Assembly (NCBI GenBank): GCA_019635435.1
Contig: JAHBZM010000001.1
Coordinates: 2,128,587 to 2,192,586, forward strand
From: Ramlibacter sp.
GTDB lineage: Bacteria > Pseudomonadota > Gammaproteobacteria > Burkholderiales > Burkholderiaceae_C
Direction: 5' to 3'
Length of the DNA stretch: 64,000 nucleotides
A program made the translations under genes and the position numbers. The notes beneath the pieces are model-generated. The model had not been told where the DNA came from and did no database searches. It saw only the letters and a list, made by a program, of their open reading frames with translations. Numbering within the stretch: position 1 is the first letter of the stretch; each line of letters starts with the position of its first letter. Shown piece after piece: positions 5,501 to 39,355 of this stretch.

Positions 5501-6823
5501 ATGAAACCGATCCAAGTAGGCCTGTTGGGCATTGGCACCGTGGGCAGTGGCACCTTCAATGTGCTCAAGCGCAACCAGGAAGAAATCCGCCGCCGCGCCG
5601 GCCGCGGCATCGAGATCACCATGGTGGCCGACCTGGACACCGCGCGCGCCCAGGCCGTGGTGGGCGACCAGGCCCGGGTGGTCAACGACGCGCGCGCCGT
5701 CATTGCCAACCCTGACATCGACATCGTCATCGAGCTGATCGGCGGCTACGGCATTGCGCGGGCCCTGGTCATGGAGGCCATCGAGGCCGGCAAGCATGTG
5801 GTCACCGCCAACAAGGCGCTGCTGGCCGTGCATGGCACCGAGATTTTTGCCGCCGCGCACCGCAAGGGCGTGATGGTGGCGTTCGAGGCCGCGGTGGCCG
5901 GCGGCATTCCCATCATCAAGGCGCTGCGCGAGGGTCTCACGGCCAACAGCATCGAGTGGATCGCCGGCATCATCAACGGCACCACCAACTTCATCCTGTC
6001 CGAGATGCGCGACAAGGGGCTGGACTTTGGCGTGGTGCTCAAGGAAGCGCAGCGCCTGGGCTATGCCGAGGCCGACCCCACCTTCGACATCGAAGGCGTC
6101 GATGCCGCGCACAAGGTCACGCTCATGAGCGCCATTGCCTTCGGCATCCCGGTGCAGTTTGACAAGGCTTACGTCGAGGGCATCACCCAGCTTGGCGCCG
6201 CCGACATCAAGTACGCCGAGCAGCTGGGTTACCGCATCAAGCTGCTGGGCATCACCAAGCGCGTGGCCACGGGCATTGAACTGCGCGTGCACCCCAGCCT
6301 GGTGCCCACCAAGCGGCTGATCGCCAATGTGGAAGGGGCCATGAACGCCGTGGTGGTGCAGGGCGATGCCGTGGGCACCACGCTGTACTACGGCAAGGGC
6401 GCGGGCTCCGAGCCCACGGCCAGCGCCGTGATTGCCGACCTGGTGGACATCACCCGCCTGCACACGGCCGACGCCGCGCAGCGCGTGCCGCACCTGGCCT
6501 TCCAGCCCGATGCCATGAGCGACGCGCCTGTGCTGCCCATGAGCGAGGTGGTGACCAGCTACTATCTGCGCCTGCGCGTGGCCGACGAGGCCGGCGTGCT
6601 GGCCAAGGTCACGGGCATCCTGGCCGGCGCGGGCATCAGCATCGACGCCGTGCTGCAGCGCGAGGCCGACGAGGTGAGCCAGGCCGGCGAGAACCAGACC
6701 GACCTGATCATCCTCACGCACGACACGCGCGAGGGCACCATGAACGAGGCGCTCGCGCAGATGCAGGCCCTGCCCACCGTGGTGGCGCCGATCACGCGCA
6801 TCCGCAAGGAAGAGCTGGCGTAA
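5501..6823 (+). CDS. hom: homoserine dehydrogenase
   Basis: N-terminal Rossmann motif GxGxVG and a C-terminal ACT domain. Sits in the conserved alaA-hom-thrC arrangement. Confidence 0.9.
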   Translation: MKPIQVGLLGIGTVGSGTFNVLKRNQEEIRRRAGRGIEITMVADLDTARAQAVVGDQARVVNDARAVIANPDIDIVIELIGGYGIARALVMEAIEAGKHVVTANKALLAVHGTEIFAAAHRKGVMVAFEAAVAGGIPIIKALREGLTANSIEWIAGIINGTTNFILSEMRDKGLDFGVVLKEAQRLGYAEADPTFDIEGVDAAHKVTLMSAIAFGIPVQFDKAYVEGITQLGAADIKYAEQLGYRIKLLGITKRVATGIELRVHPSLVPTKRLIANVEGAMNAVVVQGDAVGTTLYYGKGAGSEPTASAVIADLVDITRLHTADAAQRVPHLAFQPDAMSDAPVLPMSEVVTSYYLRLRVADEAGVLAKVTGILAGAGISIDAVLQREADEVSQAGENQTDLIILTHDTREGTMNEALAQMQALPTVVAPITRIRKEELA

Positions 6824-26726: not shown

Positions 26727-28625
26727 ATGAGCGACTCCCTCGTTTCCCCAGCTGACAGGCAACCCTCGGGGCGGGCACTGGGCATCCTGATGCTCGGCGC
26801 GTTGGGCGTCGTCTATGGCGACATTGGCACCAGCCCGCTTTACACCATGAAGGAGATATTTGGCGTGGCCAAGGTCCCCCTGGACGCGGCGCATATCGTG
26901 GGGGCCGTTTCCACCATTGTCTGGGGCCTGCTCATGGTGGTGACGCTCAAGTACGTCGTGCTGGTTCTGCGGGCCAACAACCGGGGCGAAGGCGGCGTTC
27001 TGGCACTGGCTGCCCTGGCTGCCCAGTCGGTGGGTGGCAAGAGCCAGCGACGGGCGGGATTGCTGCTGTTGGGCATGGCGGGCGCCGCGCTGTTTTACGG
27101 CGACAGCGTGATCACCCCGGCAATCTCGGTGCTCAGTGCAGTGGAAGGCCTGGAAATTGTGACGCCGTTGCTCAAGCCCTATGTCCTGCCGGTATCAATG
27201 GCCGTGCTGATCGCGCTGTTTGCCGTGCAGCGCCGGGGGACCGCGCGGGTGGGGCGCCTGTTTGGTCCCGTCATCCTGTTGTGGTTTGCGGTGTTGGCGT
27301 TCACCGGTGGGGTGCAGGTTGCGCGGCAGCCAGGGATATTGTGGGCACTCAACCCGCTTGAGGCGCTGGCCTTCCTGCGTGGACAGGGCTGGCATGTATT
27401 TGCGGCTGTCGGTGCCATCGTCCTGGCCTTTACCGGGGCCGAGACGCTTTACGCCGACATGGGGCACTTTGGCAAGCGGCCGGTCCGGTGGGCCTGGTCG
27501 GGCTACGTGCTTCCTGCACTGGCATTGCAGTACATGGGGCAGGGCGCACTGCTCATGCGGGATGCCTCGGCGCTGGAGAACCCCTTTTACCGGATGTTTC
27601 CCCAGGAGTGGCTGCTGCCCGCGGTGGCGCTGGCGACGCTGGCCACGGTGATTGCGTCGCAGGCCGTGATCTCGGGCGCGTATTCCATGACCCGCCAGGC
27701 GGTCCAGCTTGGCCTGCTGCCCCGCATGAAGGTGATCTATACATCCGCCAGAGATGCCGGGCAGATATACATGCCCCAGGTCAACTGGGTGCTGCTGGCG
27801 GCCGTGCTGGCCGCCGTGCTGGGCTTTGGCAGTTCCAGCGCGCTGGCTTCTGCCTATGGCATTGCCGTGACACTGACCATGTTCATCACCACCGTGCTGA
27901 CCTTCTTTGTGGTGCGCCATGGCTGGGGCTATCCCCTGCCACTGGCGCTGGGGGCGACGGGCGCCTTCCTGGCACTGGACGCACTGCTGGTGGCCTCTTG
28001 CGCGCTCAAGTTTCCGGAAGGGGGCTGGTTCCCCATTGCCGCTGGTATTGCCATCGTCCTGGTGATGACGACTTGGCGACGCGGGCGCGAAATTCTTCTG
28101 GACACCATTCGTCGCGATGATCCCGACCTTCAGCAATTCGTTCGTGGACTGGCAGGGAGTTTTCCGCAACGCGTGCCGCGAACCGCCGTCTATGCCGTGG
28201 CCAATCCAGACACCGTCCCCCAGGCCCTCATGCACAACCTCAAGCACAACCAGGTGCTTCACGAGCGCAACCTGATCCTGAATGTGGTGTTCCATGAGGT
28301 GCCGTGGATTCCTTTTGGCGAGAGGGTCAAGGTCACACCACTGGAGCCCGGCTTCTGGCGGGTGGAGGTGCACTATGGTTTCAAGAATATTCCGGACATC
28401 CCCCAGGCCCTCTCGCTATGTGCTGCCCAGGGCGTGGACATCAACCTGTTTGAAACGTCGTACTTCCTGAGCCGGGAAATCATCGTGCCCACCCGGGGGC
28501 CTGGCATGGCTGGCTGGCGTGAGGCGCTCTTCGCCCTGATGTCCCGCAACGCGGGCAATGCGGCGGACTTCTTCCGCTTGCCGGGCAATTGCGTGATCGA
28601 GTTGGGAACCCGGGTTCAGATCTGA
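26727..28625 (+). CDS. kup: KUP/HAK/KT-family potassium uptake protein
   Basis: 632 aa with the N-terminal [13 protein letters not shown] signature. Confidence 0.9.
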
Positions 28626-28627
28626 CG
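28581..28627 (+). repeat. direct repeat DR-L (native kup 3' terminus)
   Basis: CCGGGCAATTGCGTGATCGAGTTGGGAACCCGGGTTCAGATCTGACG. Confidence 0.7.
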
Positions 28628-28684
28628 GCACTACGCAACATCTGGCGTGAGCACTGGAGGTCAACCACAGGGCAGGTCGGCATA

Positions 28685-29065
28685 TCAAGTTTCGAGCGGT
28701 GGTTTGGCGGCCTCTTTCAAGCAACGCGTCATGTCCCGCTTGCGCTTCGCATTGGCTGCGCGCCAGGCGCTTCTGGCTAGTTCCACAAATCGATCCTCGG
28801 CAATATCAGGCGCGCGGGCTGTGCCCCGGTCCTGATCGAGCCAGCCCGTCGGTTGGCGGGCGTGGTGTTCGATCTGCCTGGCCAGCTTGTCGCTGATGGG
28901 GCGGGCACTCTTGATCTGGCTCCACATGCTGGGCGAGATTTCCAGCAGGGCGGCAAATGTCTGGTCCAGGCCCTTGGGTGCGTCGCCGGCCGCAATGCGC
29001 TCCTGCAAAAAGGTCTGGTAGAGCGCGACCACATTGGCGCGGCGGGTAACGGTGGTTGGGGGCAC
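28685..29065 (-). CDS. XRE-family (Cro/CI-like) helix-turn-helix regulator
   Basis: HTH-like segment FAALLEISPSMWSQIKSARPISDKLARQIEHHARQPTGWLD. GTG start. Divergent from the small-ORF unit and the tRNA array. Confidence 0.5.
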   Translation of the reverse strand: MPPTTVTRRANVVALYQTFLQERIAAGDAPKGLDQTFAALLEISPSMWSQIKSARPISDKLARQIEHHARQPTGWLDQDRGTARAPDIAEDRFVELARSAWRAANAKRKRDMTRCLKEAAKPPLET

Positions 29066-29110
29066 GTGTGGAAAAGCTGCAACAGCGGAAAAATTAATTG
29101 TCTCCGGTGT

Positions 29111-29145
29111 TGACCGGATCGTAAAGACTCTTTACAGTTCGCCCA
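29111..29145 (+). promoter_or_regulatory. sigma70-like promoter (TTGACC-N17-TACAGT) in the AT-rich stretch
   Basis: Lies 45 nt upstream of the small ORF's RBS. Confidence 0.35.
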
Positions 29146-29191
29146 CTGCCTGAAACGGCATGACCATTTTTATCAACACAAGGAACCGATC

Positions 29192-29323
29192 GTGATCACC
29201 AAGCCCGCATTCACAACCAGCTTGACCCATTTGGGTCGGCGTGCGTTGGTATGCGCCACGTTCATCCAGCCATGGATGAATGGCCGCGAGGATCGCCCTT
29301 TTCCGGGAATGGAAGACGTGTAG
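29192..29323 (+). CDS. small ORF (43 aa) with a strong RBS, followed by an intrinsic terminator
   Basis: AAGGAA RBS 6 nt before the GTG. Peptide MITKPAFTTSLTHLGRRALVCATFIQPWMNGREDRPFPGMEDV. The terminator lies about 30 nt downstream. No homology recognised. Confidence 0.35.
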   Translation: MITKPAFTTSLTHLGRRALVCATFIQPWMNGREDRPFPGMEDV

Positions 29324-29352
29324 ACGCTTCTTCCATCAGCTCTTTCGAGAGG

Positions 29353-29392
29353 CCCGGATTCCACAAGGATCCGGGCCTTTTTTTTCGCTCCT
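29353..29392 (+). terminator. intrinsic terminator (GGCCCGGAT-N8-ATCCGGGCC followed by T8)
   Basis: A perfect 9-bp GC-rich stem is immediately followed by TTTTTTTT. Confidence 0.75.
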
Positions 29393-29700
29393 TTTGGGGG
29401 TGCTTGCAGTGATCGCGCTGCAAGTCGCTGCGTCATGGCGCGGCGAATTGATCTTTAACAAGTTGCCGCGGGGCAGCGCCGGTACTGGCCGGACGCGAGC
29501 TCCGCAGAAAGAAGTGGATGCCGGTCTCATGCCGGTCATCTGCTCCATTTCGGGTGTGCCTATGCACCACCGTCGCCGCGCTGCCCTGGAGTGGGTGCGA
29601 CGGGATGTGCAGGGTGTCGCTCACCGTTGTGCAGCGAGGCTCACAGGCGGCGTCATGCCGTCTGCTCGCGCGTAGACACAGCCGAAATGGAGAAGCATTC

Positions 29701-29778
29701 GCCCCGTTAGCCCAGTGGAATCAGAGCACTGGCCTACGAACCCAGGGGTCGCACGTTCGAATCGTGCATGGGGCACCA
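29701..29778 (+). tRNA. tRNA-Arg(ACG)-like, with C12-A23 and C31-C39 stem mismatches; CCA encoded
   Basis: Hand-folded cloverleaf. Acceptor GCCCCGT/ATGGGGC, T-arm GCACG-TTCGAAT-CGTGC, anticodon loop CTACGAA identical to that of E. coli tRNA-Arg(ACG), discriminator A. Confidence 0.65.
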
Positions 29779-29785
29779 GATCAAA

Positions 29786-29863
29786 GTCGTGTTCGTCTAG
29801 ATGGCCAAGGACACCTGAATTTCAATCAGGAGATCGCGGGTTCGACTCCCGCACACGACGCCA
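29786..29863 (+). tRNA. tRNA-Glu(TTC); CCA encoded
   Basis: Lies 7 nt after the previous tRNA. Glu-type D-arm GTCTAGATGGCCAAGGAC, anticodon loop ATTTCAA, T-arm GCGGG-TTCGACT-CCCGC, discriminator G. Confidence 0.7.
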
Positions 29864-29954
29864 TCAAGACCAGAGCGAGCCCTCAGTAATGAGAGCTTGC
29901 GGAAACCGGTCGCAAAGATTGGGCGGCACCGGAACCCGTCACCGGAAATTCAGA

Positions 29955-30030
29955 GGTCCGTTAGCTCAGTGGCCAGAGTGGTTCCCTGTCGAGGAACAAG
30001 TCGCGGGTTCGACTCCCGCACGGACCGCCA
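29955..30030 (+). tRNA. tRNA-Asp(GTC); CCA encoded
   Basis: Acceptor GGTCCGT/ACGGACC, D-arm GCTC-AGTGGCCA-GAGT, anticodon stem GTTCC/GGAAC with loop CTGTCGA (G37), T-arm GCGGG-TTCGACT-CCCGC. Confidence 0.7.
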
Positions 30031-30075
30031 ATTCCGAGAACATCAACCAACCCGTTAACTTCCAAGGAGGACGAC

Positions 30076-30249
30076 ATGAAACGGCAACACACCGGCGAAC
30101 AGCCGCAACGCCAACCGGTCGTCGCCTTGGCGAGGAACCGAATGGCTTGGGCCAGGCTCTGGCGCGCCACGAAGCAGTGGCGCCGCCGCATGGTCGAAGC
30201 GGACGATGCCGACCTGGCACAGCGCGTTCGCCTGAGTGGCGAATGGTGA
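30076..30249 (+). CDS. small basic ORF (57 aa) with a strong Shine-Dalgarno, just upstream of the HNH gene
   Basis: AAGGAGG sits 6 nt before the ATG. The peptide MKRQHTGEQPQRQPVVALARNRMAWARLWRATKQWRRRMVEADDADLAQRVRLSGEW is Arg/Trp-rich. It falls below the ORF-track length cut-off. Confidence 0.3.
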   Translation: MKRQHTGEQPQRQPVVALARNRMAWARLWRATKQWRRRMVEADDADLAQRVRLSGEW

Positions 30250-30304
30250 GAGCAATGGTCCACCGTTTGACGAAAAAAAATTTTAGCAACGAAAGGAAAG
30301 CATC

Positions 30305-30868
30305 ATGCAAGCGCATGTCCTGCAACTCGATATCCAGGGAACCCCTCAGGCCTGGATTTCGCTGGAACAGGCCGCGCTGCATTACGCCACCGACGGCGTG
30401 GCGTGGGAAGACGGAGCAGGCCCTCTGGCCACCCTGCGTGGCGGCTGGAGCGTGGCGCGGGGTGTGCAGTCCACGCTGGCGGTGCACCCCATCATCGCCC
30501 TGCGCGGCTCGCCCCGACGCAACCTGTTTGATGTGGTGCCTGGCTTCAGCAAGTCCAAGCTGCTGCGGCGCGACCGTTTCACCTGCGCGTACTGCGCGCG
30601 GGTGTTTGCCGAGCGCGACCTGCAGTGCGAGCACATCCTGCCCGCATCGCGGGGGGGTGCGTGGTCGTGGATGAACCTGGTCACGGCCTGCGCCGCGTGC
30701 AATGGCCGCAAGGCCGACCGCACGCCCGAGGAGGCGGGCATGCCCCTGGTGTACCTGCCCTATGTGCCGACCCGCTTTGAGGATTTTCTTCTGGTGGGCC
30801 GCAACATCCGGGCCGACGTGCACCTGTGGCTGGCCTCTCGCCTGCCCAAAGGATCGCGACTGAACTGA
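30305..30868 (+). CDS. HNH endonuclease
   Basis: HNH motif CAYCARVF...CEHILPASRGG...NLVTACAACNGRK (paired CxxC and a catalytic His). 187 aa. Confidence 0.8.
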   Translation: MQAHVLQLDIQGTPQAWISLEQAALHYATDGVAWEDGAGPLATLRGGWSVARGVQSTLAVHPIIALRGSPRRNLFDVVPGFSKSKLLRRDRFTCAYCARVFAERDLQCEHILPASRGGAWSWMNLVTACAACNGRKADRTPEEAGMPLVYLPYVPTRFEDFLLVGRNIRADVHLWLASRLPKGSRLN

Positions 30869-31022
30869 GGCTGTCCACAGTCAGAGTTCAGCCCACACAT
30901 CTTCCGCAGAAGGCGAACGCTCACAGGAGCGGGGTTGGGGCAAAGGCCCGCCCCGCCGGTGTCATTGCCCGGGCCTGGCCCGTGGGCGGGTGACATGCCG
31001 CACCGCCGGAAACGGTTGATAC

Positions 31023-31076
31023 GGGTGATGTGGGGATACCTCCTCGACGAGCCGGGTTCGACTCCCGGATCACCCA
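31023..31076 (+). ncRNA. truncated tRNA-like element: 7-bp acceptor stem plus canonical T-arm, with D and anticodon arms replaced by one short hairpin (54 nt)
   Basis: GGGTGAT...ATCACCC acceptor pairing; T-arm CCGGG-TTCGACT-CCCGG; discriminator A; no CCA. It abuts the next tRNA, 3 nt away. It could be a tRNA pseudogene remnant or a tRNA-mimic RNA. Confidence 0.4.
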
Positions 31077-31079
31077 CCC

Positions 31080-31152
31080 CATTGGATAGCTCAGTCGGGT
31101 AGAGCAGTCTTTGCATAAAAGACCGGTCACGGGTTCGACTCCCGTTCCAAAG
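31080..31152 (+). tRNA. tRNA-Met/Ile2-like (anticodon CAT) with G33, an A2-A71 mismatch and no encoded CCA
   Basis: Canonical D-arm TAGCTCAGTCGGGTAGAGCA. Anticodon stem GTCTT/AAGAC with loop TGCATAA. T-arm ACGGG-TTCGACT-CCCGT. Confidence 0.55.
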
Positions 31153-31160
31153 CAAACCAG

Positions 31161-31231
31161 GGTCGAAAGACCCGCGCCGCTGCAGTCGCGGGGCAAGCCT
31201 GATCCGACGTTGCCGCCCCGAGCGGCAACGC
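31161..31231 (+). other. three consecutive GC-rich hairpins (GGGTC-GAAA-GACCC; CCGC-N7-GCGG; CGTTGCCGC-N5-GCGGCAACG) immediately 3' of the tRNA array
   Basis: Perfect stems with no U-tract. Possibly RNA processing or stability elements. Confidence 0.4.
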
Positions 31232-31430
31232 AGGACCGGACGAGCCCTGCAACTGCCCTCGGTGGCGGCCGGCGCTGAAACCGCCCGGTCCGCGCCCACG
31301 GCCAGCACAGGCTGCCTTGCCGGGTGGCCTGAGCGCACCGTGACGCCCGGCCCTGTGCCTTCAGCGTTTGCAGCCCCCGTTGCCGCGGCGCACCCCTTCA
31401 TTCACACGCATCCAACACAAGGAGAACACC

Positions 31431-32570
31431 ATGGAATTCAAGCGTGTCAGCATCAAGAAAAACGAGCGCGGCATCCTGCTGCGCAATGGTGACTTTGACC
31501 GCGTGCTGCGGCCCGGCCGTCACCTGCTGTTCAGCGGTCTGGACACGCTGCGCGTGGAAAACTTCGCGCTCGACCAACCCGCATTCGCCCACAGTCTGGC
31601 GGACTACCTCATGGCCAGGGAAGCCGGGGTGGTCGCGGCCGAGTTCGTGCGCGTCGAGCTGGGCGAGACCCAAGCCGGCCTGCGTTCCGAGAACGGCGTG
31701 TTGGTGGAAGTGCTTGCTCCCACCACGCGGCGCCTGTACTGGAAGGGGCTGGTGGACGTGCAGGTGGAGGTGATCGACCTGGTCGCCTCGCCCGAGCTCG
31801 CCCCTGGCACGGTGGCCCGCCTGACGCAGACCCAGCTGCGCCAACGTGGCGTGACCGGCCTGGCCGGTGTGCTGCAGGTGCAGGTGCCCGAACACTCGGT
31901 GGGCGTGCTGACCGTTGACGGCAAGGTGGAACGCCTGCTGGTGCCCGGTGCGTACGCGTTCTGGAAGTTCAACCGCAATGTGGCGGTGGATCTAGTGGAC
32001 ATGCGCCTGCAGTCGCTGGAAGTCACGGGCCAGGAAATCCTGACCCGCGACAAAGTCAGCCTGCGGCTGAACCTGGCGGCCACCTGGCGCTACACCGATG
32101 TGCTCAAGGCCTTCACCCAGCTGCAAAAGCCCGCGGAACACCTGTACCGCGAGCTGCAGTTCGGGCTGCGCGCCGCTGTGGGCACCCGCACGCTGGATGA
32201 GCTGCTGGAGAACAAGACGGTCATCGACGAAGTGGTGACCACCTATGTGCGTGGCCGCCTGTCCGCGTGGGGGCTGGCGCTGGACGGCGTGGGTGTGAAA
32301 GACATCGTGCTGCCCGGCGAGATGAAAACCATCCTGGCCCAGGTGGTCGAGGCGGGCAAGTCGGCGGAAGCCAACGTGATCCGCCGGCGCGAAGAAACCG
32401 CCGCCACGCGTTCCCTGCTCAACACGGCCAAGGTCATGGAGGACAACCCCGTGGCCCTGCGCCTGAAGGAGCTGGAAACGCTGGAGCGTGTGGCCGAGCG
32501 CATCGACAAGATCTCCGTCTTCGGCGGTCTGGACCAGGTGCTCAACGGGCTAGTGAAGCTCAAGCCCTAG
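31431..32570 (+). CDS. SPFH/band-7 (slipin-like) domain protein, no predicted TM segment
   Basis: AAGGAG RBS. SPFH core from about residue 170 (VDLVDMRLQSLEV...). C-terminal coiled-coil-like region. Confidence 0.7.
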   Translation: MEFKRVSIKKNERGILLRNGDFDRVLRPGRHLLFSGLDTLRVENFALDQPAFAHSLADYLMAREAGVVAAEFVRVELGETQAGLRSENGVLVEVLAPTTRRLYWKGLVDVQVEVIDLVASPELAPGTVARLTQTQLRQRGVTGLAGVLQVQVPEHSVGVLTVDGKVERLLVPGAYAFWKFNRNVAVDLVDMRLQSLEVTGQEILTRDKVSLRLNLAATWRYTDVLKAFTQLQKPAEHLYRELQFGLRAAVGTRTLDELLENKTVIDEVVTTYVRGRLSAWGLALDGVGVKDIVLPGEMKTILAQVVEAGKSAEANVIRRREETAATRSLLNTAKVMEDNPVALRLKELETLERVAERIDKISVFGGLDQVLNGLVKLKP

Positions 32571-32621
32571 CAACCCTCCGGGGGCGGCCTTTGGTCGCCC
32601 CCGTTCTTTGGAAACAACATC

Positions 32622-33632
32622 ATGGAAACACAAGAGAAGAAAAAGAAAGTCAAACAGCCGCCCGTGCTGTTTGCCAGGACGCAGGCCGTGATGGCCCAGC
32701 TTGGAGATTGTCTGGGCGGCCCTGTGGTGAGCTACTGGAACAACCCGCGAGGCTCGGTGTGCCAGTCAGACGTGGTGGCGCTGTATGACGTGCTGGCACG
32801 TCTGGGCCGGCACGACACCATGTACCTGTTCATCAAGTCCGACGGGGGCAGCGGCCAGGTGTCGCTGCGCCTGGTCAACCTGCTGCGCCAACACTGCCGC
32901 CAGCTCGTGGCGCTGGTGCCGCTGGAGTGCGCATCGGCCGCGACGATGATTGCGCTGGGCGCGGACCGCATCCTGATGGGGCCTACCGCCTATCTGACGG
33001 CGGTGGACACCTCGCTGAACCATGCGCTGTCGCCTGTGGACCGTGACAACGACCGTGTGAACGTCAGCCTGGATGAACTCAACCGGGTAATCCGGCTGTG
33101 GCGCGACCAGCAGGGCGAGCAGGCCGAGAACGCCTACAAGTCGCTGTTCCAATACGTGCACCCGCTGGTGATCGGCGCCGTTGATCGCGCCGAATCGCTG
33201 TCCATCATGCTGTGCCGCGAGTTGCTGGCCAACCACATCGCCGATGAGGCAGTGGCCGAGCAGATAGCGGCGACGCTGAATGCCAAATACCCGTCGCACA
33301 GCTACCCCATCCTGCTGGATGAGGCCGTCAAGATCGGCCTGAAAGCCGAGCGCATGCCGCAAGAGGTCAACACCCTGTTGCTGCAACTGAACGGCTACTA
33401 CAGTGAAATGGGGCAGAAGGCGACGACCGACTTTGACGAGATCAGGGCCCATGGCAATGAGATCGTCAACATCTGGGAGGCGTCGGGCACGCAGGTGTTC
33501 TACCAACAGGACAAGGACTGGTTCTACCGCGCCGAAGAACGGCGCTGGATCACCATGAACGACAACAGCGGATGGCGCCGCATTGAACGAAACGGCTCAC
33601 GCATCAAGCGCACCTTGCTGCACGTGGCCTGA
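32622..33632 (+). CDS. ClpP/crotonase-fold serine protease (SDH/NfeD/S49-like)
   Basis: Motifs KSDGGSG and ECASAATMIALGAD are typical of Clp-fold serine proteases. This class partners with SPFH proteins. Confidence 0.55.
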   Translation: METQEKKKKVKQPPVLFARTQAVMAQLGDCLGGPVVSYWNNPRGSVCQSDVVALYDVLARLGRHDTMYLFIKSDGGSGQVSLRLVNLLRQHCRQLVALVPLECASAATMIALGADRILMGPTAYLTAVDTSLNHALSPVDRDNDRVNVSLDELNRVIRLWRDQQGEQAENAYKSLFQYVHPLVIGAVDRAESLSIMLCRELLANHIADEAVAEQIAATLNAKYPSHSYPILLDEAVKIGLKAERMPQEVNTLLLQLNGYYSEMGQKATTDFDEIRAHGNEIVNIWEASGTQVFYQQDKDWFYRAEERRWITMNDNSGWRRIERNGSRIKRTLLHVA

Positions 33633-33664
33633 GCGGCCTGCCATGGCGGGCCAAAAGGAAAAAC

Positions 33665-34885
33665 ATGAAAGAAACCAACTACATCGAAGAGCAAACCCCC
33701 GGCGGCGTGCCCATCAAGATGTGGACGCGCGGCGTGCCGGTGGAAGACGAGGCCCGACGCCAGCTCAGCAACGCGGCGCGGCTGCCCATTGTGTTCAGGC
33801 ACGTGGCCGCCATGCCTGATGTGCACTTTGGCATCGGGGCCACTGTGGGCTCGGTCATTCCCACCTTCCGCGCCATCATCCCCGCGGCGGTGGGGGTGGA
33901 CATTGGCTGCGGCATGATCGCCAGCAAAACCACGCTGACGGCTGAAGACCTGCCCGACAACCTGGGGCCGCTGCGCTCGGCCATCGAGCGAGCCGTGCCG
34001 CATGGCCGCGCACCCGGTGCGCGCGACCCCGGCGCCTGGCACAAGGTGCCAGGGTCGGTGGACACCGCCTGGGCCCAACTGGAGCCCGAGTTCACCGAGC
34101 TTTGCCGTGACTACCCCAAGCTGCGCAAGACCAACAACCACAACCACCTGGGCACCCTGGGCACGGGTAACCACTTCATTGAGGTCTGCCTGGACGAGCA
34201 GGGCGCGGTTTGGTTCATGCTGCACTCGGGCTCACGCGGCGTGGGCAATGCCATTGGCACCATGTTCATCGAACTGGCCAGGCAGGACGCCATGCGCAAC
34301 AACGTGAACCTGCCTGACCGTGACCTGGCGTACTTTGAAGAAGGCTCGCGCTACTTTGGCGACTACGTGCGGGCCGTGGGCTGGGGCCAGAAGTTTGCGC
34401 GCCTGAACCGTGAGGTGATGATGCGCCGCGTGATCGAGGCGGCCAAGACCGTGATCCGCAAGAACTTCCAGAGCCACATCGAGGCGGTCAACTGCCACCA
34501 CAACTATGTGCAACGGGAACGCCACTTTGGGGAAGATGTTTACGTGACCCGCAAGGGCGCCGTGAGCGCCCAGGCGGGTGAACTGGGCATCATCCCCGGC
34601 AGCATGGGCGCGCGCAGCTACATCGTGCGTGGCAAGGGCAACCCCGAAAGCTTCGCCTCGTGTTCGCACGGGGCAGGGCGCACCATGAGCCGTGGCGAAG
34701 CCAAGCGCCGGTTCACGCTGGCCGACCACCGCGCCGCCACCGAAGGCGTTGAATGCCGCAAGGACAAGGACGTGATTGACGAAACGCCCGCGGCCTACAA
34801 GGACATTGACGCCGTGATGGCGGCGCAGCAAGACCTGGTGGACGTGGTGCACACGCTCAAGCAGGTGGTGTGCGTGAAAGGGTGA
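33665..34885 (+). CDS. rtcB: RNA-splicing ligase RtcB (3'-phosphate/5'-hydroxyl RNA ligase)
   Basis: 406 aa. Conserved RtcB metal and GTP-binding His residues (DVHFG, GNHF, HNH region). Confidence 0.85.
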   Translation: MKETNYIEEQTPGGVPIKMWTRGVPVEDEARRQLSNAARLPIVFRHVAAMPDVHFGIGATVGSVIPTFRAIIPAAVGVDIGCGMIASKTTLTAEDLPDNLGPLRSAIERAVPHGRAPGARDPGAWHKVPGSVDTAWAQLEPEFTELCRDYPKLRKTNNHNHLGTLGTGNHFIEVCLDEQGAVWFMLHSGSRGVGNAIGTMFIELARQDAMRNNVNLPDRDLAYFEEGSRYFGDYVRAVGWGQKFARLNREVMMRRVIEAAKTVIRKNFQSHIEAVNCHHNYVQRERHFGEDVYVTRKGAVSAQAGELGIIPGSMGARSYIVRGKGNPESFASCSHGAGRTMSRGEAKRRFTLADHRAATEGVECRKDKDVIDETPAAYKDIDAVMAAQQDLVDVVHTLKQVVCVKG

Positions 34886-34902
34886 AACGCATCGCCCATC
34901 GA

Positions 34903-34930
34903 GCCGACCCGAAAGGGTCGGCTTTTTTTT
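34903..34930 (+). terminator. intrinsic terminator after rtcB (GCCGACCC-GAAA-GGGTCGGC followed by T8)
   Basis: Perfect 8-bp stem, GNRA tetraloop and a TTTTTTTT run. Confidence 0.8.
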
Positions 34931-35015
34931 GGTCGCAGGGTGGTCTACCCTTGCTTCAACGCCGTCAGATCAATCGCAATCGTCATGCGCGAGTCAGCCA
35001 GATCGTCGGCCATCG

Positions 35016-35408
35016 TCATGGTGCAGGGGGCCACGGCCCCGGGACGGTCACGGCTTCGTCAGGGCCAGGCCAGGGCGGCATGGTGATGGCCACCGCAGAT
35101 ACCCCCTCCGTAGCCGCGGCCCGAAACTGGAAGTGCGTACCCAGTGGAATGGTCAGGCAAACACCCGGTTCGAGCACCACAGTTTCTTCACGCTCGCCCT
35201 GCTTGCGCCACATCTCGCCACGCCCGGCCACCACAAACCAGATCTCTTCCACCGTGCGGTGCGTCACGGCCTGGGCCACCTGGCCGGCGCGCAGCGTGAA
35301 ATGCGCCATGCCGCCTCCCTGCAAGCCCAGCAGGATGCGCACATCCGAGCCATCGGGTGCCACCACTGTCGCGACGGCGGGGAGAGGCATGGTATTGAAC
35401 GCGGTCAT
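35016..35408 (-). CDS. cupin-domain protein
   Basis: 130-aa small-barrel cupin_2-like sequence. Confidence 0.5.
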   Translation of the reverse strand: MTAFNTMPLPAVATVVAPDGSDVRILLGLQGGGMAHFTLRAGQVAQAVTHRTVEEIWFVVAGRGEMWRKQGEREETVVLEPGVCLTIPLGTHFQFRAAATEGVSAVAITMPPWPGPDEAVTVPGPWPPAP

Positions 35409-35596
35409 GGTTGGGCGCTACCAGTTACAAACTCCATCAGATCGGCAGACAGAATGACGGGCACTTGCGGAAAGTACCCGGACTGGTTCGGCTGTGCCGT
35501 GAGCGCACAAATGTTTTTGGAATACATGCATCCTCCGCTGTTTGAATAGTGGTTCAAATTCTGCCGCATAACGTCTCCAGGCTGCTGCTCCACAAC

Positions 35597-35643
35597 GCGG
35601 GCAGTTGCCTGGTCGAGCGGGGGACCCGGGTTCAGATCTGACG
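35597..35643 (+). repeat. direct repeat DR-R (diverged copy of the kup 3' terminus)
   Basis: GCGGGCAGTTGCCTGGTCGAGCGGGGGACCCGGGTTCAGATCTGACG. In frame it encodes AGSCLVERGTRVQI-stop, against kup [14 protein letters not shown]-stop. Confidence 0.7.
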
Positions 35644-35645
35644 CA

Positions 35646-36104
35646 TCAAGGCGCGCGCCCCGGCGCCACCATGGCCGTGGCCAGCGCCAGGCCGGGCGCC
35701 GTGGGGTGGGCCGTGTCCACCAGAACGCCTTCTGCAAAGCTGAAATTTCTGGCCGGGCGGACCACATGGGCCCGGAAGGCGAGTGAATCGCTGGCGCTCG
35801 CCAGCGACAGGAACTTGACGGAGAGTTCCAGCGTGACGACCACCTCACTGTCGTAGTGCCCCAAGCCGGCGAGCACGAAGGCCGCGTCAAAACCCGCGGA
35901 GATGACTCCCCCATTGAGCGCCGTCGTGCCGCCACCGCCCAGCGGGCCAGGGGCCAGCCCTGACAGGGTGACAACCGCGGTGCCGGGTTCCTCGAACGCA
36001 CCCTTGAAGCCGAACCACAAGACCTCTTTGCGCGCGTTGAACTGCAGCAGTTGCTGTGCGCGCCTTTCAGGCGACAGGCGAAAAGCGGCCGAAGGAAGTT
36101 GCAT
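35646..36104 (-). CDS. hotdog-fold thioesterase superfamily protein
   Basis: Start taken at the internal Met (MQLPSAAF). PaaI-like hotdog sequence. Confidence 0.55.
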   Translation of the reverse strand: MQLPSAAFRLSPERRAQQLLQFNARKEVLWFGFKGAFEEPGTAVVTLSGLAPGPLGGGGTTALNGGVISAGFDAAFVLAGLGHYDSEVVVTLELSVKFLSLASASDSLAFRAHVVRPARNFSFAEGVLVDTAHPTAPGLALATAMVAPGRAP

Positions 36105-36756: not shown

Positions 36757-39144
36757 CTAATAGAGGTACACCGCCCCCGAATTGCTCTGGCTTGCATCGG
36801 CCTGGTTGCCACCAATGCCGCCCGAGCCACCGTCTTCTGAGGCCGCACCCACGGCGAGGGTATTGCCATCGGCCGACAGCGCCACCGCACCGCCAAACCG
36901 GTCGCCCGCGCCGGTATTGGGTGCCTTCAGGTAGGCCGACTGCGACCACGCCGCGCCGCTGCGCTTGAACATGAAGACGGCGCCGGCATCCGCCGCGGCG
37001 GTGTTGGCCTGGTCCCCGTTGAAACCCGTGGCGTTGCTGTCTTCACGGTAAGACGACACGGCCAGCGTATGGCCGTCCGCCGACATGAACATCGCATTGC
37101 CAAAGCGATGTGGTGTTCGCGTGTTGGAGGGCTTCAGGTACGCCTGCTGTGACCAGGTTGCGCCCGCACGGGTGAACACAAATGCGGCGCCCGAATTCAA
37201 GGCCAGCGCATTGTCGACGGGGTTGACTGCGAACACGCCGGTGTTGTTGCTGCTCTCGCCGTCCATCCCCACGCCCAGGGTGTTGCCGTCGGCCGACAGG
37301 ACAACTGCCACTCCGAACCGGTCATTGGCTTCGGGCAGCGGCGCCTTCAGGTAGCTCTGCTGCGCCCACAGGTTGCCCGTGCGCTGAAAGACGTAGGCGG
37401 CTCCCGCGTTGGACAAGGAGTTGTCGCCCGGGGCCGCCGCGTCGGCGCTTTGCTCAAAAAACGCGCCCACCGCGACGGTGTCACCACTGCCCGAGAGCGC
37501 CAGTGATATGCCGAAGAAATCGCCCGCGCCCGCGTTGGATGCCTTGAGGTAGCCCTGGGCCGACCAGACGCCCCCTGTGCGCGTGAACACATGGACGGCC
37601 CCTGAGCCGAAGTAAGCGCCGTTGCCGTGCGCGCCCGTCTGGTCCGCGCTCTCGTAATAGGCGGCCACCGCCAGCGTGTCGCCGTTGGTGGACAGCCTCA
37701 CGGTGGTCCCGAACAGGTCGCCAGCGTACGCGTTGGGTGCCTTGATGAAGGCCTGGCGCGACCACACCGCGCCACTGCGGGTGTAGACATACACGGCGCC
37801 AGCGCTGGCTGCCAGATTGTTGGTGGCCGGCATCACGGTGAAGGTGCCGGTCTGGTTGCCCGACTCCCCGTCGGCCCCGATGGCCAGCGTGCTGCCGTCG
37901 CCCGACAGGGCCAGCGCGTTGCCAAAGTAGTCGTTGGCATCCGGGTTGGGCGCTGCAATTCGGGCCTGCTGGGTCCACGTGGCCCCGGTTTTGGTGAAGA
38001 CATACACAGCGCCCGTGTTGCCGCCCTCACCGTAGGCTCCAACGGCCATCGTCGAACCGTCGGCCGACAACGCCACCCGGTTGCCGAAGCGGGCCTCCAC
38101 CGCCGGCGAGGCCGCCTTGAAGTAACCGATGGCCTGCTTCATGTCGGGCGCCACCGCCGCCGAGCTCGGCCCACACCCGCTCACGTTGCAGGCCTGCACG
38201 GTGTAGGTGGCGCTCAGGCGCGTGTGCAGCAGCACCGGGACCGCATACGCCAGGCTGGTTGTGAAACTGCTTTGCCCGATCTGCACCCGGGGCAGGGGTC
38301 CGGCGCCGTCCGGGTCTTCGTACACCAGGTAGCTCTGGGCATCTGCCACAACGTTCCATGAAAAGTTCAAGGCCTTGGCCGCGTAAGTGATGGTCAGGCC
38401 CGGCGCGGCGGTGGGAGCGGGTGGCGGCGGCGGGGGTGGCGGCGGAGGCGGGGGCTCCGGCGGGGGCGGCGGCACCACTGCGCTGCAGTGGACCAAGGCT
38501 TGGCTCTGCTGCCCTGCGCTGCCCGTGCCCTGCAACACACTGCACAGCATCCCGGCCGGTTGCACAGCCACCGTGACGGTGTAGGGCGTGCCGTGCGCCA
38601 GCGGGGTGGCGAAGCTGAAGGACCCGTTGGCAGGCACGGACAGGTTTTCTGCCCCGTTGATCTGAAGCACCACGGTGCCTACCAGGCCCGTCACCTCGAC
38701 GGTGATGGGGTAGGTGTTGTCGGAGCATGACACCAGAATATCGTTGACGGGCCCCACAGCCGTCCCCGTGCCGTTGGCCACCACACAGGTCTGCCCCGTG
38801 GGCTGCGTTTTGACCACCAGGTGGTAGGCGGTGCCGACCGCCACCGTCACGGAATAGTGGCCTGAAGACGTCAGCTCCACTTCAAGAGTGCCGTTGTTCT
38901 GCAGAACCACCTTGCCCTTCAGGCCGACCAGGGTGCCGCCAATGGTCGTTTCGGCGCTTGGCGTGTCCGGAGGGCCCACGGGGGCGTCGCTGCCCCCGCC
39001 GCAAGCCGCCAGCGTCATGAGCAAAGGGAACGCCAGACACGCTGCGGCCCAACGCCTCAGGTGGTTGAAGTTGACGGTGACCCGGCCCTTCAAGGCCAAC
39101 AGGGAAACGTGCCCGCGTGAAAGCCGGCCAACAAAACATTGCAT
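36757..39144 (-). CDS. large surface lipoprotein with Ig-like domains, a poly-proline linker and FG-GAP-type beta-propeller repeats
   Basis: Lipobox LAAC. Run of PPPPPEPPPPPPPPPPPPAPTAAPG. Repeats of the form DG-TLAVGA...GAVYVF-R-G--W-Q-AYLKA-N. Start uncertain: ATG at 39144, or GTG around 39084 giving MTVNFNHLRRW. Confidence 0.65.
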   Translation of the reverse strand: MQCFVGRLSRGHVSLLALKGRVTVNFNHLRRWAAACLAFPLLMTLAACGGGSDAPVGPPDTPSAETTIGGTLVGLKGKVVLQNNGTLEVELTSSGHYSVTVAVGTAYHLVVKTQPTGQTCVVANGTGTAVGPVNDILVSCSDNTYPITVEVTGLVGTVVLQINGAENLSVPANGSFSFATPLAHGTPYTVTVAVQPAGMLCSVLQGTGSAGQQSQALVHCSAVVPPPPPEPPPPPPPPPPPPAPTAAPGLTITYAAKALNFSWNVVADAQSYLVYEDPDGAGPLPRVQIGQSSFTTSLAYAVPVLLHTRLSATYTVQACNVSGCGPSSAAVAPDMKQAIGYFKAASPAVEARFGNRVALSADGSTMAVGAYGEGGNTGAVYVFTKTGATWTQQARIAAPNPDANDYFGNALALSGDGSTLAIGADGESGNQTGTFTVMPATNNLAASAGAVYVYTRSGAVWSRQAFIKAPNAYAGDLFGTTVRLSTNGDTLAVAAYYESADQTGAHGNGAYFGSGAVHVFTRTGGVWSAQGYLKASNAGAGDFFGISLALSGSGDTVAVGAFFEQSADAAAPGDNSLSNAGAAYVFQRTGNLWAQQSYLKAPLPEANDRFGVAVVLSADGNTLGVGMDGESSNNTGVFAVNPVDNALALNSGAAFVFTRAGATWSQQAYLKPSNTRTPHRFGNAMFMSADGHTLAVSSYREDSNATGFNGDQANTAAADAGAVFMFKRSGAAWSQSAYLKAPNTGAGDRFGGAVALSADGNTLAVGAASEDGGSGGIGGNQADASQSNSGAVYLY

Positions 39145-39355
39145 GGTGATGGGTCCTCGTCTGCACCCGTGGCCCAACAACGGCCGGTCATGCAGGGATC
39201 CGATGGGCCTGTGTGCCAAGCCTGAATCGGGCCCGAATGATGCAATGGCGTGGGGCGTGGTTGCAGTGGTGCAAACCCATCCAAACTTCAGTAGGGTTGA
39301 CAAACGCAGCGACGCCAACGCGTCAGCGTCCGGGCAATAGTTGCTACCAATTCCG

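Follow-up and report, generated by a model that had tools for sequence, protein, structure and literature searches.

A probable RNA-repair module of SPFH protein, tRNA-like RNA, and RtcB ligase joined to a reduced tRNA-array unit in Ramlibacter

We analyzed a 64,000-nucleotide stretch of a Ramlibacter sp. genome (GenBank assembly GCA_019635435.1, contig JAHBZM010000001.1, positions 2,128,587 to 2,192,586 of the forward strand; hereafter the window), in which an earlier sequence-only reading had singled out three consecutive genes for an SPFH protein, a Clp-fold serine protease, and an RtcB RNA ligase. Together these genes make up the 3' half of a roughly 6-kb block (28685-34932), whose 5' half carries a repressor-like gene, a leader, three tRNA genes, and an HNH endonuclease gene. 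The core of this block is likely to be the predicted Band-7/SPFH, tRNA-like RNA, and RtcB RNA-repair module, fused in Burkholderiales to a reduced, horizontally spread tRNA-array unit. The module itself is of an already known kind: an operon of SPFH/Band-7 protein, tRNA-like RNA, and RtcB was predicted computationally by Burroughs and Aravind in 2016, as that work is described by papers citing it (10.1101/312249, PMC13404743), and the SPFH-RtcB arrangement is thus not undescribed, as had been supposed. The domain identities, intact catalytic motifs, recurring gene order, and RNA covariation reported below were computed here.

The conserved SPFH-RtcB core

The three open reading frames (ORFs) lie on the same strand at the coordinates first reported, as confirmed by the ORF list and by Pfam and NCBIfam domain scans. 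The third (33665-34885, + strand) encodes RtcB, an RNA ligase joining 3'-phosphate or 2',3'-cyclic phosphate ends to 5'-OH ends (Pfam E 7e-128; PHROG 1075 E 1e-142). Compared with Pyrococcus PH1602 RtcB, it keeps all of the metal-binding and nucleophile motifs (MPDxH, DIxCG, GxGNHF, HxGSRG, HN, and CSHGAGR). The RtcB family reseals breaks with 2',3'-cyclic-phosphate and 5'-OH ends.

To survey gene order, we mapped the window proteins and tRNAs onto 80 species-level genome loci and one added locus (81 in total; numbered with the prefix L), and counted RtcB in the 72 with enough downstream sequence. RtcB lies downstream of SPFH on the same strand in 53 of the 72, directly adjacent in 32 and with at least one gene between in 21. 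The loci with SPFH followed by RtcB belong to Burkholderiales, Rhodocyclales, Burkholderia, Ralstonia, Pseudomonas, Undibacterium, Gilliamella, Phytobacter, Enterobacterales, and others. The protease accompanies SPFH in 3 of the 81 loci. SPFH and RtcB are therefore the conserved core pair and the protease is an optional accessory; it is not the defining partner that it had been taken to be, since other genes fill the slot between SPFH and RtcB elsewhere. These encode a 270-amino-acid Cys-rich protein, a 246-amino-acid protein, a zf_Tbcl zinc-finger protein, and a PNKP-type HAD phosphatase, of which the last two are of RNA-repair type and count in favor of an RNA-repair reading. The full trio is not confined to the window either: SPFH, protease, and RtcB occur together in at least five independent loci.

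Other genes also follow SPFH. Enterobacterales loci, including E. coli (L075 Lonsdalea, L080 Citrobacter, L081 Klebsiella oxytoca, and L093 E. coli), have a nucleotidyltransferase gene of about 260 amino acids after SPFH, replacing RtcB; in E. coli STEC639, this SPFH-nucleotidyltransferase pair is inserted between yjbD and lysC. Two further loci (L064 and L071) have an AAA+ ATPase gene after SPFH.

A soluble SPFH protein with a predicted vault-like fold

The SPFH gene (31431-32570, + strand) encodes a soluble slipin/stomatin-like protein of 379 amino acids, with a pair of beta repeats at the N-terminus and a long helix toward the C-terminus. We take the ATG at 31431 as the right start because homologs are 378-379 amino acids long and begin with MxFKR. 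The family, labeled "slipin family" by NCBI, is very uniform, with more than 7,600 homologs of 378-379 amino acids; the N-terminal part alone forms 566 clusters at 50% identity. The Pfam Band_7 domain spans amino acids 151-322 (E 3e-29).

The sequence-only reading had held that this protein lacks the usual membrane anchor and bears an extra beta-rich N-terminal domain of about 170 amino acids. The first point is borne out, as we detected no membrane segment: the maximum Kyte-Doolittle mean over 19 residues is 1.09, and in the AlphaFold model the N-terminus consists of beta repeats, with strands from residue 3. The beta-rich extension also exists, but it measures about 146 amino acids and consists of two repeats of about 72 amino acids, each resembling the first 45 residues (the first beta strands) of the SPFH domain. 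Shuffle z-scores for the repeat-to-repeat comparisons are 7.2, 4.7, and 4.0, there is a weak Band_7 match at amino acids 7-40, and relatives of 453, 524, and 591 amino acids carry additional repeats.

The AlphaFold model, built on an alignment of shallow depth (predicted local distance difference test score 82.9), has two five-stranded beta units leading into the SPFH domain and then a helix of about 60 residues. When this model is compared by fold, only major vault protein entries align over about 400-490 columns, while stomatin and HflK/C align over about 250. The predicted fold thus matches only major vault protein over its whole length. This link is by modeled fold only, as the SPFH profile does not reach major vault protein at the sequence level and the N-terminal repeats have no Pfam Vault repeat match. 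According to PMC13404743, Burroughs and Aravind called these SPFH proteins bacterial homologs of major vault protein that share operons with RtcB. PaFlo8, an SPFH protein of Pseudomonas aeruginosa, is located inside the rtc locus (PMC13086221).

A tandem tRNA-like RNA upstream of SPFH

Between the HNH and SPFH genes lies a structured RNA (about 30957-31153, + strand) composed of a 5' hairpin (30957-31000) and two tandem tRNA-like units (31023-31075 and 31080-31153). Two T-arm motifs, 60-90 nucleotides (nt) apart, are found upstream of SPFH in 62 of 78 loci, with a CCCGCCGGTG motif about 100 nt further upstream. For covariation we used an anchored subset of 25 loci, since aligning every upstream region globally with MAFFT left too many gaps for a consensus fold. 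Pairing holds in 95.6% of the cells of this alignment, with compensatory changes at 27 of its 40 pairs; when the 3' partner columns are displaced by 1-3 positions as a control, at most 49% are paired.

Each part of the RNA has its own pattern of conservation. The 5' hairpin has an invariant base (CCGGUG / CAUGCCG) and a variable, freely covarying stem, with compensatory changes at 13 of its 18 pairs. Unit 1 has a conserved T-arm with covariation and matches the Rfam mascRNA model at 29.6 bits, which is under the gathering threshold; it is a full cloverleaf in Pseudomonas loci and is reduced in the window to a mini form with acceptor stem and T-arm only. Unit 2 is a complete cloverleaf, with invariant D and T arms and covariation at all five anticodon-stem pairs. 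Its anticodon loop varies in both sequence and length and is sometimes only 4-5 nt long.

Unit 2, which is the tRNA call nearest to the three genes, had been counted among spare tRNAs, and ARAGORN, which we used for all tRNA calls, names it tRNA-Met (CAT). We reject this identity: unit 2 is a structural tRNA mimic rather than a decoding tRNA. Its "anticodon" differs at nearly every locus (Met, Thr, Ile, Phe, Asn, Cys, Val, Lys, Arg, Ser, Leu, or undetermined by ARAGORN), and the window copy has a G at position 33 and lacks an encoded CCA, while the three tRNAs further upstream do encode CCA. In the window, 278-351 nt separate it from the SPFH start downstream, and at most loci the corresponding ARAGORN call is about 300-430 nt upstream. 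Unit 2 corresponds to the "band 7-associated tRNA" of the literature (b7a-tRNA), as outlined in 10.1101/312249. No Rfam family covers the combined hairpin and tandem tRNA-like element, and the score against the Rfam YrlA model is 22.4 bits (gathering score 69).

The 277 nt between unit 2 and the SPFH start (31154-31430) are partly conserved with locus L001, including a GGTCGAAAGACC hairpin at about 31160-31173 and a GGCGG...CCGCC block at about 31262-31290. Pseudomonas and Burkholderia loci have a second CCCGCCGGTG motif in this interval.

The protease as an optional accessory

The middle gene of the trio (32622-33632, + strand) encodes an SDH-family, Clp-fold serine protease with a C-terminal beta domain. 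SDH_protease is its best family (42.5 bits, cut-off 31.3). The single hydrophobic peak is a buried strand bearing the catalytic serine. As no relative turned up when the protease sequence was searched against the Protein Data Bank, we used a predicted structure. The family is highly conserved, with at least 76% identity across 120 clusters, and a Ramlibacter sp. metagenome-assembled genome encodes a protein 100% identical to the window protease.

We also sampled the protease family separately from the SPFH loci, for its gene context. The order HNH-SPFH-protease-RtcB occurs in five loci (the window, L003, L005, L086, and L089). The protease is found without RtcB in two loci (L012 and L092), without SPFH in two (L085 and L091), and alone in unrelated neighborhoods in three (L082, L083, and L090). 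L085 and L086 are metagenomic contigs with the same flanks; SPFH is precisely absent from L085 (HNH-protease-RtcB), and a reverse-transcriptase gene lies downstream in L086. This difference therefore reflects a recent gain or loss inside the module.

These data bear on the proposal that the SPFH protein and the protease are a standard membrane quality-control pair, an SPFH protein with an NfeD/STOPP-class protease, with RtcB merely adjacent. We regard this as very improbable. The SPFH protein has no N-terminal anchor or other membrane segment, and the protease matches NfeD1b_N only below threshold (18 bits, cut-off 40), which leaves the pair without an NfeD partner. Nor are the two conserved partners, given 3 of 81 loci for the protease and 53 of 72 for RtcB, and the protease also occurs with RtcB where SPFH is missing.

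The upstream half: repressor, leader, tRNA array, and HNH gene

The block begins with a divergent gene for a repressor-like protein of 126 amino acids, P126 (28685-29065, - strand), which matches PHROG 12107, "transcriptional repressor" (E 2.8e-8), and has no Pfam match. P126 homologs occupy the same position in HNH-bearing loci, and a homolog with 44% identity is found at the 27-tRNA array of Methylibium PM1. We considered whether P126 is TrcR, the repressor of the Anabaena tRNA array, and rejected this identity: TrcR is a ribbon-helix-helix protein found in cyanobacteria only, and P126 matches a phage repressor family.

A promoter-like site (TTGACC-17-TACAGT, 29110-29138, + strand) is the sole sigma-70-like site found in 28500-36000 and is conserved in five aligned loci. 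A perfect inverted repeat (GTAAAG-ACT-CTTTAC, 29121-29135) overlaps its -10 element and is probably an operator. This is followed by a candidate leader ORF (29192-29323, + strand) of 43 codons, with a ribosome-binding site, a GTG start preceded by AAGGAA, and a TAG stop, and then by a conserved CCGGG and a hairpin, P1, whose loop contains the leader stop codon (29303-29336, + strand). An intrinsic terminator (GGCCCGGAUUCC..GGAUCCGGGCC plus a run of U; 29347-29389, + strand) closes the leader.

Eighteen loci have the terminator hairpin; across the 17 that were aligned, including the Methylibium array plasmid and a locus with the protease gene alone (L090), the stem sequence does not vary. All 18 have an in-frame stop 24-33 nt ahead of the terminator hairpin. 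In 10 of the 11 loci bearing an ATCGTGA start motif, this motif is in frame with the stop, giving predicted lengths of 43-66 codons. A tblastn search with the 43-amino-acid peptide gave no matches, and conservation of the leader is visible by frame and position only. P1 has compensatory changes at all five of its pairs, and CCGGG pairs with CCCGG of the terminator 5' arm once the 3' arm is removed, making it a possible antiterminator. Judged by sequence and predicted pairing, the leader has the anatomy of a ribosome-sensing attenuator and is a candidate that may be new.

Three canonical tRNA genes follow on the + strand, Arg-ACG (29701-29778), Glu-TTC (29786-29863), and Asp-GTC (29955-30030), each called by ARAGORN and matched in Rfam (50-66 bits). 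Just ahead of the first, a conserved domain of about 110 nt is closed off by a long-range stem (CCATTTCGGGTGTGCC ... GACACAGCCGAAATGG; 29545-29690). This domain is present in L002 and L020, partial in L016, and absent from L001, has no Rfam match, and could be a processing signal or another structured RNA. After the tRNAs comes a small ORF (30076-30249) that we did not take as a gene: although its ribosome-binding site is good, tblastn matched it in none of the loci. The HNH endonuclease gene (30305-30868, + strand) encodes 187 amino acids (Pfam HNH_5, E 5e-15).

HNH, P126, and tRNA arrays travel together. Arrays at the same position in related loci have 0-15 tRNAs; at least one array tRNA (median about 5) is found in 14 of the 16 HNH-bearing loci but in only 6 of the 57 that lack HNH. 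On the Methylibium PM1 megaplasmid (L087, RPME01), which has a P126 homolog but neither SPFH nor RtcB, 27 tRNAs are followed by an HNH gene whose product shares 70% identity with the window HNH. The latter is also 34% identical, over 82% of its length, to an HNH preceding 21 tRNAs on a Tolypothrix plasmid. The Methylibium petroleiphilum PM1 array is itself interrupted by HD-domain and AlkB dioxygenase genes, and an ERCC4 nuclease gene follows its HNH; all of these add to the nucleic-acid repair genes that sit within a tRNA array. The suggestion that the three genes belong with the upstream tRNAs and HNH has thus held up, in that the block is recurrent and patchily distributed.

Long tRNA arrays with an HNH gene alongside (L-arrays) are known from cyanobacteria (PMC8421152). 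The window does not have a long same-strand array of this kind, which can reach 43 tRNAs; the array is best read as an L-array remnant because it has three tRNAs and homologous arrays have up to 15, or 27 on the Methylibium plasmid. In Anabaena, translation inhibitors jointly induce the tRNA array, rtcB, and the HNH gene all8564, a co-regulated set that aids survival (PMC8421152). The repressor TrcR controls the Anabaena array, two HNH genes, rtcB (77-fold), and alr0739-alr0740 (alr0740 being a slipin-family gene, 42-fold) (PMC10272220). The contiguous gene set of the window therefore corresponds to a regulon that is co-regulated but scattered in Anabaena.

Given this linkage, the block might be a selfish mobile tRNA-array element, in which an HNH homing endonuclease spreads the array and SPFH, protease, and RtcB are hitch-hiking cargo. 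The repressor-leader-array-HNH unit on the Methylibium plasmid without SPFH or RtcB fits this idea, as do the 0-15 tRNAs in otherwise similar loci, which suggest decay, and the homing role proposed for all8564 (PMC8421152). However, the fusion is kept in the same order across many Burkholderiales genera, and the leader terminator is kept even ahead of a lone protease gene. Moreover, the unlinked array, HNH, rtcB, and slipin genes of Anabaena are under one repressor (PMC10272220), and a functional regulon is therefore favored over chance linkage. A selfish array explains the upstream half but not the shared regulation in Anabaena, and we consider it unlikely as an account of the whole block.

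We hold it equally unlikely that the block is a conflict system (abortive infection or anti-phage), with HNH and protease as effectors, SPFH and its RNA as sensor, and RtcB as a reset or immunity factor. Such a system would suit the patchy, seemingly horizontally transferred distribution at variable genomic sites, the phage-type repressor, the resemblance of the HNH domain to PtuB-type HNH (E 1.6e-9), and the phage-family relatives of both RtcB and the protease. Among the PADLOC 2023 models, however, SPFH, protease, RtcB, and P126 have no match and only the generic HNH domain does, and the SPFH gene is carried by none of the 50,697 phage records searched. HNH tracks tRNA arrays, not the SPFH-RtcB core, and the accessory genes found in the SPFH-RtcB slot are of kinds that heal RNA ends. 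In Anabaena, the co-regulated set answers translation inhibitors and aids survival (PMC8421152).

Transcription and flanking features

The sequence-only reading had proposed co-transcription of the three genes. The short gaps (51 nt between SPFH and protease, 32 nt between protease and RtcB) agree with this, but co-transcription is probably partial because a terminator-like hairpin fills the SPFH-protease gap. This GC-rich hairpin lies just past the SPFH stop codon (32579-32603, + strand), with 11 bp of which 10 are GC pairs, followed by TTCTTTGG. Most related loci have a stable GC-rich hairpin directly 3' of the SPFH stop, often without a U-run. From its sequence, the hairpin may be a partial terminator or a 3'-end protector, and it may raise the SPFH:RtcB ratio, which would suit a structural protein relative to an enzyme. 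The perfect terminator reported after rtcB is confirmed: an operon-end intrinsic terminator (34901-34932, + strand) with a perfect 10-bp stem at 34901-34924 and then a T-run.

Upstream of the block is an ORF (26727-28625) that we take to be a Kup transporter, and downstream are genes for cupin, thioesterase, and TspO proteins by Pfam. No Ro60 (TROVE), RtcA, or RtcR is encoded among the genes adjoining the operon, the part of the 64-kb window that was scanned for them. Two further features are unrelated to the module or distant from it. A large ORF (36757-39318, - strand) encodes 853 amino acids with a run of about 25 prolines and many FG-GAP/beta-propeller-like repeats, and ARAGORN calls a 96-nt tRNA-Ile (GAT) at 6392-6487 (- strand), which is unusually long for a tRNA-Ile.

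Proposed mechanism

The earlier proposal of a tRNA repair module stands in part. tRNA/RNA repair is the best-supported function, from published predictions and the Anabaena co-regulation, but the nearest tRNA is not a replacement tRNA. From the gene content and these parallels we infer the biochemical steps, the SPFH oligomeric state, the regulation, and the protease substrate, as follows. As long as cells are unstressed, P126 as repressor and the terminator of the leader would hold the block silent. Damage to translation or tRNAs, whether by anticodon nucleases, ribotoxins, or antibiotics, would lead to read-through and thereby to production of extra tRNAs, HNH, the structured RNA, SPFH, and RtcB. 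The cytosolic SPFH protein, with the domain order of major vault protein, could form a ring or cage and, in this form, bind the hairpin and tandem tRNA-like RNA. The RNA-SPFH particle may then be a scaffold or decoy, delivering broken tRNA or rRNA to RtcB for resealing of 2',3'-cyclic-phosphate and 5'-OH ends, by analogy with the scaffold role proposed for Ro60 and Y RNA in rsr-yrlBA-rtcBA operons. The array tRNAs would replenish or buffer the tRNA pool.

The PH1510 protease processes the C-terminal region of the PH1511 stomatin. By analogy, the protease of the window would be an add-on from the same unit that most likely processes a module protein, for example at the conserved hydrophobic C-terminal tail of SPFH, and it would be dispensable for core function.

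A broader and more tentative possibility, which we think rather doubtful, is that the whole block (28685-34932) is a self-contained island that senses and repairs translation damage. The leader attenuator (ORF 29192-29323, CCGGG antiterminator, and invariant terminator) would sense ribosome stalling and would switch on the spare tRNAs, the tandem tRNA-mimic RNA, a vault-like SPFH cage holding that RNA, a cage-processing protease, and RtcB.

Several points weigh against the RNA-repair reading set out here. RtcB is absent downstream in 19 of the 72 SPFH loci, so the SPFH-RNA pair can work with other partners. SPFH may not be the protease substrate, because the protease occurs without SPFH (L085 and L091) and alone (L082, L083, and L090). 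The b7a-tRNA was described as experimentally unvalidated as of 2018 (10.1101/312249). The structure models for SPFH and the protease were built on shallow alignments (30 and 20 sequences), and Anabaena alr0740 is likened to the window SPFH by its slipin-family label only. There are only three array tRNAs in the 64-kb window, and the terminator-like hairpins at 29347 and 32579 mean that the block may not be read as one transcript.

As a prediction the SPFH-RNA-RtcB module dates from 2016, and this locus gives coordinates for each part of the block, from repressor to ligase. As all of them sit in one 6-kb stretch, the block can be cloned or perturbed as a unit. It also joins two literatures, on RNA-repair operons and on horizontally spread tRNA arrays, in one gene cluster. 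To our knowledge, the function of vault-type particles and their small RNAs has not yet been established; if the broader island reading is true, the operon would be a compact bacterial model for how such particles use their RNAs, and the attenuator and the relation of cage, RNA, and protease would be new biology.

Comparison with known systems

The stomatin-STOPP/NfeD pairs (PH1511/PH1510 and QmcA-YbbJ) resemble the window genes in having a stomatin-like SPFH core with a long helix and a Clp-fold serine protease encoded beside it. Unlike these, the window SPFH has no membrane anchor and its pairing with the protease is rare and dispensable. The window protease also differs from PH1510 in belonging to the SDH family, in its Ser-His arrangement, in carrying an additional beta domain at the C-terminus, and in lacking the NfeD OB domain.

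The eukaryotic vault particle (major vault protein, vault RNA, and TEP1) shares tandem beta repeats, an SPFH "shoulder", a long helix, and a small structured RNA with the window system. However, major vault protein has nine repeats, whereas the window SPFH has two (relatives up to about five) and these lack a Pfam Vault repeat match; cage formation in the window is predicted only.

The rsr-yrlBA-rtcBA operon of Salmonella likewise combines RtcB with a ring- or cage-forming RNA-binding protein (Ro60) and a tRNA-mimicking RNA, and is tied to tRNA damage (PMC7790460, PMC4201824); for the window SPFH, the cage is a prediction. The RtcB operon responds to cleaved tRNAs (PMC7790460). In contrast, the window has no adjoining Ro60/TROVE, RtcA, or RtcR, and its RNA scores far below the threshold for YrlA. 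While the Salmonella operon has a sigma-54 activator, we propose that a small repressor and a leader terminator act in the window.

The cyanobacterial L-array/TrcR system has the same HNH family beside a tRNA array, and its Anabaena regulon, which takes in rtcB, HNH genes, and a slipin-family gene, stays silent unless translational stress induces it. It differs in that the Anabaena genes are scattered and TrcR-repressed, whereas the window genes are contiguous, with three tRNAs and an unrelated phage-type repressor plus a leader terminator.

The closest counterparts are the Band-7/b7a-tRNA/RtcB operons, known to us as papers citing the 2016 work describe them. These also have an SPFH protein, there called a homolog of major vault protein, encoded next to RtcB, a tRNA-like RNA gene in the operon, and a patchy distribution suggesting lateral transfer. 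Both hallmarks recur in our survey: SPFH and RtcB are repeatedly neighbors (53 of 72 loci, 32 immediately), and a tRNA-like RNA lies beside the Band-7 gene (tandem T-arms in 62 of 78 loci, with 27 of 40 pairs compensatory). Unlike the operons so described, the window has an RNA made of a 5' hairpin and two tandem tRNA-like units, an inserted protease, and a fused repressor-leader-array-HNH unit. Thus, relative to the known system as the citing papers present it, this locus is new in its inserted protease, its fusion to the remains of an L-array, its tandem arrangement of tRNA-like units, and its candidate attenuator.

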